NCBI GenBank assembly: GCA_003345555.1
Contig: PRDJ01000082.1
Location: forward strand, 1-12,797
DNA length: 12,797 nucleotides
Direction: 5' to 3'
DNA from: Candidatus Thorarchaeota archaeon
GTDB lineage: Archaea; Asgardarchaeota; Thorarchaeia; Thorarchaeales; Thorarchaeaceae
In this document: piece by piece, positions 654-10,519 of the stretch
Layout of the letters: each line of letters opens with the position of its first letter
Position numbering within the stretch: the stretch's first letter is position 1
Translations under genes and position numbers: made by a program
Notes under the pieces: model-generated
Databases searched by the model: none
Told to the model about the DNA's origin: nothing
Seen by the model: only the letters and a program-made list of their open reading frames with translations

Positions 654-1142
654 CTATACACGATCTCGTGCCTTCCAAAGGATGTCCCGATATCGCTCAA
701 CCAGTATGTCCGGCCAGTTTCCTATTGATCTTAACATCAAATCTGCAGTTAGTGTGACCCCTTTATCGAGTTCCAGTTCTCGAAGCCACGGGCAGCCGAA
801 CAATGGAGTCACATCCAGTCGCTTGATTTGGTTCTCCCTCAACGTAATCTCACGTATGTCATGACACTCCGCTATTGGCACTAGATCGATTTCCTGCAAT
901 CGGTTATGGTTGAGCCTCAGTTCCTTCAAGCGACCGCATTTCGCCAACGGCGTCAAGTCAACTCCTGAGAGAGAGTTGTATCCTAGACTAAGGTACTCTA
1001 AGTCTATGCACCATATCAGGGGCAAGAGGTCAACCGATGTCATGTCGCGAAGGTCTAGGTTGATATGTGACTCTGTCGCCTTGAAAATCTCGTATTTCTC
1101 CAAACCGGTACTTGTGACGTATCTGATAAAGACCTCAACCAT
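654..1142 (-). CDS. Short leucine-rich repeat protein (162 aa)
   Basis: LxxLxLxxNxLxx(V/I/L)DLxPLxxCxx repeats at exact 24-aa spacing (VDL at aa 37 and 61, IDL at 85, LDV at 109). A GAGG SD-like motif lies upstream on the minus strand. Confidence 0.9.
   Translation of the reverse strand: MVEVFIRYVTSTGLEKYEIFKATESHINLDLRDMTSVDLLPLIWCIDLEYLSLGYNSLSGVDLTPLAKCGRLKELRLNHNRLQEIDLVPIAECHDIREITLRENQIKRLDVTPLFGCPWLRELELDKGVTLTADLMLRSIGNWPDILVERYRDILWKARDRV
765..1034 (-). repeat. 3 full plus 1 partial 24-aa LRR units (72-nt period)
   Basis: VDLLPLIWCIDLEYLSLGYNSLSG / VDLTPLAKCGRLKELRLNHNRLQE / IDLVPIAECHDIREITLRENQIKR / LDVTPLFGCPWLRELEL. Confidence 0.9.
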
Positions 1143-5131: not shown

Positions 5132-5476
5132 GTGCCCATTGACCGGAACTTCCGCAGCAAGCTGAGGGTCAGCGGCAACCATGGCGGTCATTCGGTCTGG
5201 ACCTCAAAGAGTCACAAGCCATGTACGATCCATGGCACAACAGTCGGTGTTCACATGGAGTCCTGCATTGGATGCATGAAATGCGTGAATGCCTGTCCGA
5301 CAGCTGTCCTTGTCCCGTGGACGGACAGTTTTGGGAAACAGTTGGTAGACCCCGCCAACGAGATGGAATGCATGGCCTGTCTGCTATGCGAGGTTGTGTG
5401 TCCCGTGGATGCCATAAGTGTCCAAAGGAGTCCTGGCTCCGAAGAAACCTTGGACTCTTTATTACACGATGTGTAG
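5132..5476 (+). CDS. zfx: Zinc-containing-type dicluster ferredoxin (114 aa)
   Basis: Two CxxCxxCxxxCP motifs. The N-terminal extension IDRNFR...HGGH...IHGTTVGV and DPANE align with Sulfolobus/Thermoplasma Zn-ferredoxins as I recall them (IDPNYR...HSGH...IHGTIVGV...DPVNE). GTG start. Confidence 0.9.
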   Translation: MPIDRNFRSKLRVSGNHGGHSVWTSKSHKPCTIHGTTVGVHMESCIGCMKCVNACPTAVLVPWTDSFGKQLVDPANEMECMACLLCEVVCPVDAISVQRSPGSEETLDSLLHDV

Positions 5477-5501: not shown

Positions 5502-6770
5502 ATGTTCGAGGTTCTTCTGACTGAAAGCGAGAAGAGAATAAGGGATGAAGTCCGTACGTTTGTGAGAGACAGGGTCGATCCCTCTCTCATCCTCAAGATG
5601 GACTCCCGTGAACAGGAATACCCGTATGAATTCGTCAAGGCCGTCGGGCAAGCCAACCTCTTCGGATTGCGTTTTCCGAAGAAATATGGCGGCCGCGGTC
5701 TCGGCTGGGTCTCAGAGATGTTGGCCATAGAAGAGATTGGGGTTCTAGGTATTGCACTTGGGTGTGCCTACTCTCTGCCAAGTATAATTGGAGAGGGGAT
5801 AAACAGATTTGGAACTGACGAACAGAAACGGAAGTACCTTCTGCCGACACTACGTGGCGAGAAGATATGCGGAGAAGGGCTAACAGAACCTCGTGGTGGT
5901 TCAGATTTCTTTGGTACCAATACGACAGCTGTCAAGCGAGGGGACCATTTCGTGCTTAACGGGGAGAAACGTTTCGTCGCCGGAGGAGTTGGCGCTGACT
6001 ATTTCCTAGTTTATGCCAAGACCGACTTCCTCAAGGCGCTCCCGCACAAGTCCCTCAGTGCTTTCTTGGTGAATAGAGATTCTGGCGTGAAAGTTGAAGA
6101 ACAGTACGAGCTAATGGGATGCCGGGGGATGGGAGCTGCGCGGATTGTCCTGAACAACATCGAGGTGGATGAATCTGACTTAGTGGGTGGTCTGAATGGC
6201 GGAAATGACGTGTTCAATGCGATGATGGTCCCCGAGCGGTTAACTTCCGCCGCCGGTGCAATAGGCATGGGCAGGGCTGCGCTTGAAACCGCGGTCAGAT
6301 ACTCAGACAAGAGGGAAGCATTTGGTCAACAGATCCGGCGATTTGAGGGAATAAGCTTCAAGATTGCAGACTGTGCTACACAGCTCGATGCGGCAAGGGG
6401 CTTGGTCTATCATGCTGCCAAGAAAGCAGACACAGGCGCATGGTGCCGCAAGGAAGTCTCTCAGGCGAAGTTCTTCGCGACCGAGGCCGGCTTCCAGGCA
6501 ATTCATGAATCCATGCAAATCCTCGGAGGCATTGGTTACACAAACGTGTACCCATTGGAAAGGCTATTCCGCGATGCTAGGCTAGGAATCACATGGACCG
6601 GGAGCAATGAGGTACAACGTCTGATAGTACAGAATGAGGTTTACAAGGAAATCCTGTCCGAAGGCCGCGGCACCAAGCGGGACATAGAACTGGACACACC
6701 GGGCGCCCAGAAGACAGCCGAAAAGGTGTTCACTGAGGCGGCTGACAAGTACTTTCCAAAGGAAGGATAG
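5502..6770 (+). CDS. Acyl-CoA dehydrogenase (IVD/LCAD-type catalytic Glu, 422 aa)
   Basis: GEGLTEPRGGSD, LNGEKRFV, GCRG, ERL, REAFGQQI, AKFFATE, QILGGIGY, ERLFRDAR. ATG 5502 has GGAG at 5489-5492. The longer ORF from 5418 overlaps the ferredoxin gene. Confidence 0.95.
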   Translation: MFEVLLTESEKRIRDEVRTFVRDRVDPSLILKMDSREQEYPYEFVKAVGQANLFGLRFPKKYGGRGLGWVSEMLAIEEIGVLGIALGCAYSLPSIIGEGINRFGTDEQKRKYLLPTLRGEKICGEGLTEPRGGSDFFGTNTTAVKRGDHFVLNGEKRFVAGGVGADYFLVYAKTDFLKALPHKSLSAFLVNRDSGVKVEEQYELMGCRGMGAARIVLNNIEVDESDLVGGLNGGNDVFNAMMVPERLTSAAGAIGMGRAALETAVRYSDKREAFGQQIRRFEGISFKIADCATQLDAARGLVYHAAKKADTGAWCRKEVSQAKFFATEAGFQAIHESMQILGGIGYTNVYPLERLFRDARLGITWTGSNEVQRLIVQNEVYKEILSEGRGTKRDIELDTPGAQKTAEKVFTEAADKYFPKEG

Positions 6771-6850
6771 TGGTCAGGTCGGCACCAGCCTTAGTAATTC
6801 ATGAACGCACCCACGATTTCCCAGATGCGCAAGTTCATAAGCCGAGTCGA

Positions 6851-6864
6851 TTAATTATAGTTAA
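6851..6864 (+). promoter_or_regulatory. AT-rich near-palindrome containing a TATA-box candidate upstream of the 55-aa protein
   Basis: TTAATTATAGTTAA has dyad symmetry with one mismatched pair. An SD-like GGGAG lies at 6903-6907. Confidence 0.5.
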
Positions 6865-6916
6865 GCCTTGGCAATCAACTGAGAGAGGCAAGCAACAGAA
6901 AAGGGAGATCATTAAA

Positions 6917-7084
6917 ATGAGCAAGCTCGTCTGCAAGAAGTGCGGTATGGAGATGGCAATGCCAATGCACTGCGGAAAGGAAATGCACCAAGAGGGCAAC
7001 CAGCTTGTCTGCTGGATGGGTCCCGAATGTGGGCAGCAGGCTATTCCAAAGCATCATGGCGCTCCTATGTCAATCAAGGCATAG
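6917..7084 (+). CDS. Small Cys/His/Met-rich metal-binding protein with two desulforedoxin-like modules (55 aa)
   Basis: MSKLVCKKCG...PMHCGKEM / LVCWMGPECG...PKHHGAPM. ATG 6917 has an SD; the ORF-track start at 6770 overlaps the ACAD stop and is implausible. Confidence 0.8.
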   Translation: MSKLVCKKCGMEMAMPMHCGKEMHQEGNQLVCWMGPECGQQAIPKHHGAPMSIKA

Positions 7085-7100
7085 GGGCTAACATGCATAG

Positions 7101-7145
7101 CCCGCAAAGGTGGGAAGGGGTTACCTTTTTCGCACCTAATGCGGG
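7101..7145. terminator. Long imperfect hairpin followed by a T-rich tract (possible terminator or structured RNA)
   Basis: CCCGCA/TGCGGG, AGGTG/CACCT and GAAGGGG/CTTTTTC stacked stems (some G-U pairs), followed by TTAGTCATTTTTCATT. Confidence 0.5.
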
Positions 7146-7304
7146 TTAGTCATTTTTCATTGAAGTGCGAAAAGTGCAAACTGAAGTGCTGACGACAGAA
7201 TCTTCTGAGCATATGTCCAGTCCGTGGCTTTTGGCATCGATTGGATCAGAGCGCAGGAAGGGTTATTTCCTGCCATCAGACCACATCCCAGATGAGGCCG
7301 ATTT

Positions 7305-7676
7305 GTGATTTCTCAGATACTTCCTCCTCTGGAGCTGATCGAGTATGGTATCCCCGCTGTGCTCGTCGGACTCGTCATTGGTTATGCTATTGGTGGCTCG
7401 TCACGTCTGTCCATCTTGAAGCGCGTAGGTCTGGCAACAGTCGTCTGTCTTGTGGGAAGTCTGATGATGTCTGCTTTGTTGTACGTCTTCCTGCCCGTGA
7501 CAATCCAAACAGTGCTTTTCGGGATAATATCTTTCACAGGGGGCTACGTATTCGGGACAGTGAGCCATTGGAGCCCGCCTGAAGTGCCGGCCTCCAAGCC
7601 CCATGTCATATTCGAACCTGAAGACGATGAGGAGTTCGACCGTGAGATAGACAAGGCCCTCGGTCGAGACAGATAG
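7305..7676 (+). CDS. Hypothetical 3-TM membrane protein with acidic C-terminal tail (123 aa)
   Basis: Three hydrophobic segments with GxxxG motifs, GTG start with GAGG upstream, and the acidic tail EPEDDEEFDREIDKAL. Confidence 0.8.
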   Translation: MISQILPPLELIEYGIPAVLVGLVIGYAIGGSSRLSILKRVGLATVVCLVGSLMMSALLYVFLPVTIQTVLFGIISFTGGYVFGTVSHWSPPEVPASKPHVIFEPEDDEEFDREIDKALGRDR

Positions 7677-7794
7677 AATTGTGTGTTTCCGGATGGGTTT
7701 TCGTTACAGCATTCTGCAGTGGACAAGCCCATAATCGTTAATAGATAGGTTGAGGCAGGGGTCTCGTGCTCTAACCAGAAGAGTGACATGCAAC

Positions 7795-9015
7795 ATGAGA
7801 AAGACTTTGGCTTCTCTAATCCCTCTTGTGTTCATCACATGCATGCTGTGGTCTACACTCATCATTATGCCTTCACAGGCTGTGCCCGCAGGTTGGAGTG
7901 GTGACAGCAATCTAGAGTTTCTTTTTCTCCTGAACGGAACGTCGGCTGCTGAAGCAAACTCCAGTCACCCTGTACCAGTGATTACCGACCTAACCATGAA
8001 CCTGACGATTCATGCCGTCAACAATCTCCATCTTTGGGGCGGCAGTCTAGTCATGCAGTACTTGGGAATCTCGATAGTGAATCAGCCGTTGTCCTTGAGC
8101 TATGATTTGCCTGCCGGGTTTAATGCATCTCTTCTGAACACATCAATCCCGTTGGGCTCTCTGCTAACCTATGGTGGCATTGCTCTAGTAACCGGAACGA
8201 TGCTTGGGTCGCTCTCCTTCGTATACAATGTCACATCAGGGACAAACACTACAGTAAGCCAAGACTTTGTGCTTCGGTTGGGTCCTACCGGTGCGGCCGC
8301 AATAATGTCCGTGGCGGGTCTTGTCACCGTGGCCTTCACAATCACTTCAGTATTCGGCCTGCTCATGTCACTGGATGATTTTCAACGGGGAATTCTGGCG
8401 GCGAGGAAGACCAGAGGCGCAAAGAGGGCTTCAGACGTGGGCATATTTCCGTCTGCTCTCGTTCTTAGGAGACGACCAAAGAAGGGTGCAGAGACAATAA
8501 GCAAGGAAGAACTTGTACGACGCGTAAGCGACGCGGCCAGAAAGGGCTGGGATGGAAGGCGATGCCCGCAGTGCGGTCATAAGTGGCCAAAGGAAGCCGC
8601 CAAATGCCCGAAATGCAGGCTGGATCGTACATCAGCCCCAGACTACTTCTCAAAGGGCATTGCAGAATACGCACCGAAAGCGCTCAGTGTTGTTAAGCCC
8701 AAATCCAAAGTTACCGTTGGTACTTTCTCGCGGCGTCTAAAGCTGAAGCCTGACAGGGGTGGTGCTTTAGCTGCAGCATTGACCGACATGGGCGCCTTTC
8801 AGACTAAGAGTGTGAAGGTGCCACTGATGAAGGTAGCACTGGCTGGCATGACTCTGGCAGGTACTTACTGGAGCTGGATGCAGATCATTGCAGGGGCAAC
8901 TCCCTCCCTTTTGGATATCCTCTTATTGACCTGCGCCGGCCTGATCGTATCAGTGCTCGTGGCCTATTTGATGAGCTGGCTTGCAAGGGTCCCGAAGCTC
9001 GGTTACGAAGAATAG
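7795..9015 (+). CDS. Uncharacterised membrane protein: signal peptide, N-glycosylated ectodomain, TM, zinc ribbon, wHTH-like segment, 2 TM (406 aa)
   Basis: Signal-like N-terminus ending SQA, 7 NxS/T sequons, a hydrophobic helix, CPQC-x10-CPKC, a basic cytoplasmic region and two C-terminal hydrophobic helices. ATG 7795 follows GAGTGA; the TTG at 7750 is an alternative start. Confidence 0.85.
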   Translation: MRKTLASLIPLVFITCMLWSTLIIMPSQAVPAGWSGDSNLEFLFLLNGTSAAEANSSHPVPVITDLTMNLTIHAVNNLHLWGGSLVMQYLGISIVNQPLSLSYDLPAGFNASLLNTSIPLGSLLTYGGIALVTGTMLGSLSFVYNVTSGTNTTVSQDFVLRLGPTGAAAIMSVAGLVTVAFTITSVFGLLMSLDDFQRGILAARKTRGAKRASDVGIFPSALVLRRRPKKGAETISKEELVRRVSDAARKGWDGRRCPQCGHKWPKEAAKCPKCRLDRTSAPDYFSKGIAEYAPKALSVVKPKSKVTVGTFSRRLKLKPDRGGALAAALTDMGAFQTKSVKVPLMKVALAGMTLAGTYWSWMQIIAGATPSLLDILLLTCAGLIVSVLVAYLMSWLARVPKLGYEE

Positions 9016-9157: not shown

Positions 9158-10519
9158 TCAAGGTACAATCGTCAACGCAATATGCAGAAAGGTCTGCTCT
9201 AGCCAGAGAATCGTGGAAGCGGTCGTGACCTCCAATAAAGAGAGAATCGATCCGATTTTCAGGTATTCCTTGAGGCCTATCTCAAGGCCTTTTCTTTTCA
9301 TTGTGCCAAGCCACATGAGAATCGCCAATGACCCAAGTGGGAAGAAGTGGGGCCCCAAGTTGTTCCCGATGATGTTAGCGAATATTAGACTTGTACTCGC
9401 CTGTGGGCCCAAACCCGCCAGGACCATTGCCTTGTCAACAGACAGAAGACCCAGCATTGTCATAGGCCAATTGTTCATTGCACTCGCACCGATCGTTACA
9501 ATCAAGCTCGGGACAAGAATCGAGAGTACTGATGGTAGAGACACTGAGCCTATGAAGAGAGCTGCAAAGAAATCGACAGCTCCCGCATGTCTCAAGCCCT
9601 GTACCACGAGAAAGATGGCCACCATGAAAAACAGGATATCCCAGTTGACTCTCCTCAGGACTTGCAGAGGGCCATTCGACTGGGTTCCCAAGCTTGGGTC
9701 CGTCTTGTACTTCATTGCGTATAGTGTAAGGAGAAAGATTGCACCTGAGAAGATGACAAATGAAACTGGAATGCGGTTCAGTGACGTAACAACATATCCA
9801 ATGTCTATGGCAATCAGGGTGATTATGCTCGTTCTTAGCATAAGAGGGGGCGAGCTGTTCTTAATAAGATCCTCAACCGCCGAGTTTGAGTACGTGGGTG
9901 GGATTCTTTTCCTGAAGAACAAATACACGACAAGAATGGTTTGCACTGCCGTGACAATTCCGACCAAGCCCATGAAGATCGCATGCTCTATGAACGTGTA
10001 CCCGAAGTAGTCCGCGCTTACTATATTCACAGGGTTACTCGTAATCAGCGGCATTGCCGCAGTGTCAGCAATGAGCCCTGCCCCAAAGAGGTATGCAAGG
10101 CTGCTCTCTTTGCTGGTCTTCAGCTCCTTAACCATCTCCATGACAATCGGGGTGAGAATGAGAACTGCACTATCGTTCGCGAACAGAATGCTCACAGCAG
10201 CAGTAAAGAGCGAGATGTAGAAGAACAACCTTACACCGTGACCGTGAGCGAGTCTGGCTACCCTCAGGGCCGCCCACCTGAAGAAACCCATCGCATCTAG
10301 AGTCACAGACAACATGACTATGCCTACAAACGCAAGAGCCGCATCCCATATGTTTCCGAAGGCAACAATGGCGTCTGCAGCAGTAACAGTACCAAGCAGT
10401 AGAGATGCAACTGCTCCAATTCCCGCCGCTATGCCCAAGTTGATGTGCCTCGGACGTTTCACCATGAGAAACAGAGTCACGAGGAATACGGCCACTGATG
10501 TAATAGCTGCATAGTCCAC
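9158..10519 (-). CDS. arsB: ArsB-family arsenite/antimonite efflux membrane protein (453 aa)
   Basis: ArsB motifs LDAMGFFRWAAL, ILFANDSAVLILTPI, AGLIADTAAMPLITSNPVNIVSADYF, IGNNLGPHFFPLGSLAILMW. About 11-12 hydrophobic segments; GTG start with a GGTGA SD. Confidence 0.88.
   Translation of the reverse strand: MDYAAITSVAVFLVTLFLMVKRPRHINLGIAAGIGAVASLLLGTVTAADAIVAFGNIWDAALAFVGIVMLSVTLDAMGFFRWAALRVARLAHGHGVRLFFYISLFTAAVSILFANDSAVLILTPIVMEMVKELKTSKESSLAYLFGAGLIADTAAMPLITSNPVNIVSADYFGYTFIEHAIFMGLVGIVTAVQTILVVYLFFRKRIPPTYSNSAVEDLIKNSSPPLMLRTSIITLIAIDIGYVVTSLNRIPVSFVIFSGAIFLLTLYAMKYKTDPSLGTQSNGPLQVLRRVNWDILFFMVAIFLVVQGLRHAGAVDFFAALFIGSVSLPSVLSILVPSLIVTIGASAMNNWPMTMLGLLSVDKAMVLAGLGPQASTSLIFANIIGNNLGPHFFPLGSLAILMWLGTMKRKGLEIGLKEYLKIGSILSLLEVTTASTILWLEQTFLHIALTIVP

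Follow-up and report, generated by a model that had tools for sequence, protein, structure and literature searches.

A conserved Thorarchaeotal membrane protein family with an Ig-like ectodomain and a predicted winged-helix module between membrane helices

Here we describe a membrane-protein gene (7795-9015, forward strand) in a stretch of DNA of 12,797 nucleotides, hereafter the window, which corresponds to positions 1 to 12,797 of contig PRDJ01000082.1 (C82 in our labels) in the Candidatus Thorarchaeota archaeon assembly GCA_003345555.1, a genome of 2.28 Mb and 93% completeness. Homologues of its product in public databases likewise carry the label Candidatus Thorarchaeota. Eukaryotes have no closer known relatives than the Asgard archaea and, to our knowledge, almost nothing is known about the communication between the surface and the cytoplasm of these archaea; the protein occurs in every searched genome of one Asgard family, and it unites familiar folds in an arrangement that matches no curated family. 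Its architecture, topology signals, predicted folds, conservation and distribution, all computed from sequence comparison and structure prediction, are those of a conserved unnamed family, in which known folds are unusually arranged and which is a variant of the membrane-tethered winged-helix/zinc-ribbon theme. The domain order runs from a signal peptide through an immunoglobulin (Ig)-like ectodomain, a first transmembrane (TM) helix, TM1, and a basic cytoplasmic module to a C-terminal TM hairpin.

Architecture and topology of the protein

The open frame extends from 7750 to 9015 on the forward strand, as given by the list of open reading frames (ORFs) and the translation, and an earlier interpretation of the window, called here the sequence-only reading, had placed the start at TTG 7750. 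The alignment of 34 orthologues begins instead at ATG 7795 (MRKTL...), so the protein has 406 amino acids (aa) and the residue numbers of that reading were 15 too high; residues are counted throughout this work from ATG 7795 (Table 1). With this correction the architecture that it had drawn is recovered by hydropathy, residue counts and AlphaFold2 models: a signal-peptide-like start, an ectodomain with seven N-x-S/T sequons (now aa 47-151), TM1, a Lys/Arg-rich cytoplasmic region and two further TM helices, so that the putative nucleic-acid-binding module is a loop anchored at both ends, with the ectodomain outside. The full-length AlphaFold2 model (35 orthologues in the alignment, mean predicted local distance difference test score (pLDDT) 73.7) shows a beta-sandwich (aa 40-162), TM1 as a long helix, a cytoplasmic module of mixed structure and two C-terminal helices.

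Table 1. Features of the membrane-protein gene and of the small gene upstream of it (AF2, AlphaFold2; VIA, structure matches)
Feature	Position	Strand	Basis and remarks
Membrane-protein gene, 406 aa	7795..9015	+	Stop codon included, start ATG 7795; ORF list and orthologue alignment
Signal peptide or N-terminal anchor, aa 1-29	7795..7881	+	Ends PSQA/VP; hydropathy, conserved site, low pLDDT at aa 21-29
Extracellular Ig-like (E-set) beta-sandwich, aa 30-164, 7 N-glycosylation sequons	7882..8286	+	AF2 strands, VIA, sequon enrichment
TM1, aa 165-194	8287..8376	+	Hydropathy; AF2 helix aa 173-206
Basic juxtamembrane helix, short strand aa 222-226, helix aa 237-251	8377..8547	+	AF2 models
Zinc ribbon, aa 252-280	8548..8634	+	W252, C257PQC260, W264, C271PKC274; invariance, weak Pfam matches
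Winged-helix-like domain, aa 281-343	8635..8823	+	AF2 domain model, VIA matches; orthologue identity 76%
C-terminal TM hairpin, aa 344-398	8824..8988	+	AF2 helices, hydropathy; invariant W361 and Q363 at outer end
Small three-helix membrane protein, 123 aa, conserved acidic tail HVIFEPEDDEEFDREI	7305..7676	+	Directly upstream of the membrane-protein gene; possible partner

At the N-terminus, a hydrophobic stretch (aa 4-30) is followed among the orthologues by a conserved cleavage-type site, (P)VQA/AP, where the slash marks the cleavage point. The seven sequons lie at aa 47, 55, 69, 110, 115, 145 and 151, the one at aa 115 reading NTS in the window and NKS in the cluster representative P0002. 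Over 35 orthologues the ectodomain has a mean of 5.5 sequons, against 2.0 after shuffling, and the cytoplasmic part a mean of 0.06; sequon positions aa 77, 115 and 151 are present in 26-31 of the 35 sequences. Judging from these sequence signals, the ectodomain is probably N-glycosylated. As to its fold, the sequence-only reading had suggested a comparison with Ig-like and other beta-sandwich structures, and the AlphaFold2 strands together with the VIA matches (Z 10-11 to RbmA, RhoGDI and Spo0M) give an Ig-like sandwich; the predicted fold is Ig-like, of the E-set type. The language-model neighbours of this domain are archaeal CARDB/NPCBM-associated surface domains (score 0.80), which we take as a lead only.

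The sequon distribution and the charge agree in placing the ectodomain outside and the basic module inside, since the cytoplasmic 150 aa contain 36 Lys and Arg against 12 Asp and Glu, and the ectodomain has a single Lys or Arg. The C-terminal helices (aa 344-366 and 372-397 in the AlphaFold2 model) are joined by a loop of five residues; the first is weakly hydrophobic (mean Kyte-Doolittle value 0.92, against 2.2 for the second), and for this reason the pair is best termed a TM hairpin. In the orthologue alignment the TM helices contain small-residue motifs. The mean pairwise identity between orthologues is 48% in the ectodomain, 64% in the zinc ribbon, 71% in the TM hairpin, 75% in the juxtamembrane part (aa 195-236; 61% in the helix aa 237-251) and 76% in the winged helix, and thus the inner module is the constrained part of the protein.

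The cytoplasmic module was folded alone by AlphaFold2 from 40 orthologues and paralogues, which gave a better model than the full-length protein (pLDDT 82.5, predicted template-modelling score 0.74). In it a helix, a short strand and a second helix precede a four-strand zinc ribbon, after which a helix-strand-helix-helix-strand unit occupies aa 293-340. Both CxxC knuckles of the ribbon are present (C257-P-Q-C260-x10-C271-P-K-C274); none of the four Cys varies, nor do W252 and W264, in orthologues or in paralogues of about 25% identity, and in remote homologues the Cys are likewise invariant. This invariance and the four strands of the model bear out the zinc ribbon that had been read from the sequence. 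Weak matches to Pfam DZR / Zn_ribbon_3 were obtained in all 35 orthologues (E-values of about 1e-3 to 1e-5, the best 2.7e-5), the window protein itself reaching 16.6 bits, below the gathering cut-off of 27.3. The protein resembles the generic membrane-proximal zinc-ribbon proteins (Pfam DZR PF12773, Zn_ribbon_3 PF13248, Zn_Ribbon_1 PF13240) in having a CPxC...CxxC ribbon beside a TM helix; it differs from them, which are domain-only models with no known function, in that the ribbon sits within a larger module. The ribbon segment (about aa 251-280) is precisely deleted in at least 12 family genomes, belonging to three genera plus two further species (for example genomes G004, G019, G010 and G014; loci L027, L029 and L031), where the orthologues are 375-407 aa long. 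As these genomes retain both the winged helix and the TM helices, the zinc ribbon is an accessory, dispensable part.

The unit that follows the ribbon has the topology of a winged helix: H1 (aa 293-299), a strand (aa 305-307), H2 (aa 308-314), H3 (aa 319-331) and a wing strand (aa 335-340) in the AlphaFold2 model. Its 50 best VIA matches are mostly winged helices (Z 5-7, root-mean-square deviation (rmsd) of about 2-3 A over 50-77 residues). Some of these bind protein (GATOR1 and SEA complex chains and the FAM91A1 N-terminal domain, Z 6.6-7.0), one binds RNA (SelB) and others bind DNA (MarR, ArsR, IclR, Z-alpha and FtsK-gamma, Z 5-6). The model and its neighbours sustain the winged helix-turn-helix pattern seen by the sequence-only reading, and we regard the predicted fold assignment as reasonable. 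In classical proteins of this type H3 is the helix that reads DNA, and a DNA-reading H3 carries polar or basic residues that face the groove. Here H3 reads G323-A-L-A-A-A-L-T/V-D-M-G333, with Ala and Gly invariant or nearly so, no Lys or Arg, and an Asp331 that is conserved in 32 of 35 orthologues; the remote homologues also lack a conserved basic H3. Strand 1, H2 and the wing carry 11 conserved Lys and Arg residues. As the domain's final strand stops at aa 340, four residues before the start of TM2 at aa 344, the winged helix must lie on the membrane. The predicted structures nearest to the cytoplasmic model include DUF742 (conservon CvnC), NPR2/GATOR1 and an Asgard Ras/Roc/Arf GTPase family protein (template-modelling scores of about 0.33-0.43), a faint hint that such winged helices may travel with small-GTPase machinery.

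Family, paralogue and candidate acidic partners

Searches of the curated families Pfam and NCBIfam gave the product of 7795-9015 sub-threshold generic zinc-ribbon matches only, in agreement with the sequence-only reading, which had recognised no named family for this architecture. The ribosomal proteins eL43, eL40 and bL32 appeared in the Pfam, NCBIfam and Protein Data Bank (PDB) sequence searches as weak generic zinc-ribbon matches (E-values from 0.01 to above 1) and were set aside. A feature search of the ESM Atlas returned only the protein's own cluster, and a profile search of 1.84 billion representative proteins returned 66 relatives at E <= 0.001. In whole-genome searches all 76 genomes searched from the window's own family contained a match to the profile of the cytoplasmic module, and the rest of the phylum gave sporadic weak matches only.

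Most family genomes have two copies, the orthologue of about 406 aa and a paralogue of 485-560 aa with the same architecture, which bears in addition a tail of 53-103 aa with 25-38% Asp and Glu. The paralogue was not found in the window's own assembly when this was searched with the paralogue of G002, a genome of the same genus. Remote relatives with the same architecture (16-23% identity) occur in a few other metagenome-assembled genomes; the members whose source is named mostly carry Asgard labels (Promethearchaeota, Hodarchaeota), and two are labelled Bathyarchaeota and Thermoplasmata. A second, word-based homologue search with the profile of the remote members gained only close relatives of P0144. 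In one remote relative, the 1225-aa protein P0149 (locus L037:6001-9678; named Ca-activated chloride channel family protein at JGI), VWA, Big_3_5 and NOMO-like beta-sandwich domains precede the same TM/zinc-ribbon/winged-helix/TM-hairpin module. Remote relatives thus combine the inner module with other ectodomains, and its joining to VWA and Ig-like ectodomains fits a reusable anchor or output module. The gene neighbours of the paralogue and of the remote homologues vary and are uninformative.

An acidic tail is also found in the small protein encoded directly upstream. Of the 22 other family genomes with the small gene, at least 18 have it directly upstream of the orthologue on the same strand (19 counting the copy of G012, at G012:C11:42203-42466, whose two in-frame TGA codons may indicate a pseudogene or sequencing errors). 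The conserved tail motif is H-V-I-F-E-P-E-D-D-E-E-F-D-R-E-I, also given as EPEDDEEFDREI, and the acidic-tail peptide has the sequence HVIFEPEDDEEFDREIDKALG. Three TM helices are predicted in the small protein, and basic residues in its first loop place its C-terminal tail in the cytoplasm, where it mirrors the acidic tail of the paralogue; this suggests that the basic module may meet an acidic tail either in cis, in the paralogue, or in trans, in the small protein.

A possible membrane-resident adaptor or receptor

What could such a clamped module do? As a possible reading we tentatively favour an adaptor or receptor that resides in the membrane, its ectodomain binding something at the surface and its basic module a polyanionic partner at the membrane. 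After cleavage of the signal peptide the N-glycosylated Ig-like domain would lie outside the cell, and TM1 would lead into the strongly basic module, made up of the juxtamembrane helix, the dispensable zinc ribbon and the winged helix, which would be clamped to the inner face of the membrane because the TM2-TM3 hairpin follows directly. The ectodomain would bind its surface target, and the clamped module would hold at the membrane a polyanionic cytoplasmic partner, for which the candidates are nucleic acid, recognised irrespective of its sequence, an acidic tail of a protein and an anionic lipid; proteolytic release would play no part. We infer the nature of this partner, and any signalling, from the features described above; non-specific nucleic-acid binding is plausible from the charge of the module. 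In favour of this reading, the inner parts of the protein are its most conserved ones, and acidic partners are at hand in the paralogue tail and the small upstream protein. The topology signals, the two predicted folds, the 11 conserved Lys and Arg, the reuse of the inner module, the occurrence in every family genome searched and the metatranscriptome contigs speak for it too. Should the module prove to tether nucleic acid, ribosomes or an acidic partner to the membrane, it would represent a new type of archaeal transmembrane coupling device, which might bear on the origin of the eukaryotic translocon accessories.

Several observations weigh against an adaptor or receptor of this kind. The positive-inside rule accounts for part of the high charge next to the membrane. 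Foldseek found no match in the PDB to the cytoplasmic domain at E <= 0.001, and the winged-helix matches of VIA are only middling (Z 5-7). The adjacency of the small gene is weak evidence that may reflect relatedness only, because the whole block of genes around it is syntenic; moreover, two genomes of one genus (G006:C46 and G021:C90; loci L033 and L034) keep the small gene between the nitroreductase-like and the metallo-beta-lactamase (MBL)-fold hydrolase genes without an orthologue there, and whole-genome searches of both returned the paralogue only. Contigs from RNA libraries, described below, are compatible with expression and are not proof of transcription. The complex prediction of aa 160-406 with the small protein had a score of 0.00, which is no verdict and speaks neither for nor against binding.

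The same features have been read as those of a membrane-bound one-component regulator, in which the ectodomain senses and the winged helix binds specific promoter DNA, either in the membrane or after release. This is in essence what the sequence-only reading had proposed, a surface sensor controlling transcription, and we consider it quite unlikely: the predicted winged-helix fold and the topology on which it was built have stood, and nothing links the protein to transcription. The DNA-binding MarR, ArsR, IclR and Z-alpha among the structural neighbours, a very basic module with a zinc ribbon and an ectodomain more variable than the inner module, as in sensors, all suit such a regulator. However, the Ala/Gly-rich H3 with its conserved Asp331 offers no basic or polar reader residues, and the remote homologues do no better; at least 12 genomes have lost the zinc ribbon; hmmscan gave no helix-turn-helix (HTH) family match to the window protein at E-values up to 10, and the 25 families with the most matches among the 35 + 40 members scanned include no HTH family either. 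Regulators freed by intramembrane proteolysis carry their effector domain on a single TM helix, from which one cleavage cascade releases it. Here the module is flanked by TM1 and by TM2-TM3, the winged helix ending four residues before TM2, and since it is tethered at both ends its release would need two cuts, so that the proteolytic release proposed earlier finds no support; there is also no protease gene within the conserved gene block. The AAGTGC repeats that had been suggested as its binding target do exist (7162-7189), but they do not exceed chance (the window contains 5 copies of GAAGTGC where 2.2 are expected, a count attained in 12 of 200 shuffles) and lack conservation in the upstream regions of three congeneric genomes, and no conserved upstream repeat or operator takes their place. 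ToxR and CadC have an N-terminal OmpR-type winged helix (Trans_reg_C), a flexible linker, one TM helix and a C-terminal outside sensor. The present protein resembles them in having a winged helix at the cytoplasmic face of the membrane that is coupled through it to an outside domain, and differs in that its outside domain precedes the others, its winged helix is enclosed by TM1 and the TM hairpin, H3 is rich in Ala and Gly, and no HTH family, including the OmpR/PhoB type, is matched in sequence. ArnR and ArnR1 of Sulfolobus are membrane-bound HTH regulators with C-terminal TM helices, which share with it an archaeal HTH-type domain combined with two such helices; unlike it they are not known to have an ectodomain, a signal peptide or a zinc ribbon, and no search revealed a sequence relation.

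There are two further explanations. The protein could be a structural surface or adhesion protein whose cytoplasmic module is a mere membrane anchor or oligomerisation device, with no ligand of its own. A CARDB-like/E-set ectodomain, as in many archaeal surface proteins, the adhesin-like look of the VWA-bearing relative, the archaeal CARDB plus zinc-ribbon membrane proteins among the nearest ESM Atlas models and the small-residue motifs in the TM helices argue for it, yet the cytoplasmic module is the best conserved part (75-76%, against 48% in the ectodomain), which is not expected of a mere anchor, and we regard this explanation as unlikely; were it correct, the interest would be local, for the annotation of Thorarchaeota. 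Somewhat less likely still is a divergent accessory of the translocon akin to TRAP-alpha, with the Ig-like domain at the exit side of SecY and the basic module docked on ribosomal RNA, to which such a module would be suited. In outline the predicted protein resembles TRAP-alpha (SSR1, PF03896): a signal peptide, a non-cytoplasmic Ig-like domain that is glycosylated (here by prediction), a TM helix and a basic cytoplasmic part. The lumenal domain of TRAP-alpha recurs as a structural neighbour in three libraries. The 22 best Foldseek matches include five ribosome-translocon entries that contain TRAP subunits (E about 1e-3), the nearest Atlas models include a eukaryotic TRAP_alpha cluster (116 residues aligned, rmsd 3.6), and VIA gives Z 9.7 to chain 8b5l_q (rmsd 12.7), whose residue numbering leads us to identify it as TRAP-alpha; this alignment spans 142 residues and takes in the TM helix. 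Unrelated Ig-like folds have similar scores, generic ones (RhoGDI, RbmA) score as well or better, a PDB profile search did not find TRAP, and HMMER with Pfam TRAP_alpha (PF03896) gave no match in the protein (E up to 10), in its own genome or in 26 family genomes; TRAP-alpha, moreover, has one TM helix and a short tail, against three TM helices and a 150-aa domain here. Searches of the window's own genome or of family genomes with Pfam TRAP_alpha, TRAP-gamma and TRAP-delta yielded nothing usable, and the TRAP_beta matches fell in other, large proteins. According to the supplement of Eme et al. (2023, PMC10307638), Thorarchaeia possess two very divergent TRAP-alpha copies, detectable by profile-profile search only, and two copies per genome is what most genomes show for the present family; nevertheless, those published proteins could not be mapped to it, and among the rows listed in the table of that source the TRAP-alpha cluster scores in the column of the 'Idunn' ancestor, not in the Thor column (PMC10307638). 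A more elaborate version, in which a Thorarchaeial TRAP-alpha-like subunit or analogue keeps its Ig-like domain at the outer face of SecY, docks translating ribosomes through the clamped module and has this docking regulated by the acidic tails (of the paralogue in cis and of the small protein in trans), seems to us improbable, and more so than the plain accessory; if true, it would provide an archaeal ribosome receptor without described counterpart.

The only weak TRAP_alpha matches in the phylum sample, in family f9, belong to a repeat-rich surface protein of another kind and were rejected. This 914-aa Asgard protein (L078:1205-3949, genome G042) has many W-x-D-type repeats, one TM helix and a cytoplasmic domain that ends in a winged-helix-like motif.

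Neighbouring genes and other observations in the window

The gene belongs to a syntenic block of about 10 genes that extends across the family and includes a ferredoxin, an acyl-CoA dehydrogenase, a nitroreductase-like protein, the small TM protein, the protein described here and the MBL-fold hydrolase. In the window, the acyl-CoA dehydrogenase gene lies between a ferredoxin-like small gene and a Cys/His-rich small ORF (5132-5476 and 6770-7084), and both the dehydrogenase and the ferredoxin belong to the block. Directly downstream of the membrane-protein gene lies a gene for an ArsB-type arsenite pump (9158-10519, reverse strand); in most other family genomes this position is occupied by the MBL-fold hydrolase gene, followed by PiT and PhoU-like genes, and the placement of ArsB is a local rearrangement in the window's genus. 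At 654-1142 (reverse strand) the window encodes a 162-aa leucine-rich-repeat protein (LRR_4/LRR_8), of a type common in Asgard genomes.

Contigs from the metatranscriptome libraries of two wetland studies cover both the small gene and the membrane-protein gene at 95% identity or more, most of them at 99% or more; they do not cover the spacer 7591-7804, and this says nothing on co-transcription. An Rfam scan of the window found no RNA family, and in a repeat search of 7000-7800 a weak inverted repeat was all that appeared. At 7239-7287, a GGTTAT element about 35 nucleotides upstream of the small gene is bracketed by the inverted repeat GCAGGAA ... TTCCTGC; the core GGGTTAT(C/T)TC of this element is conserved in three congeners and may be the TATA box of the small gene, possibly with an operator.

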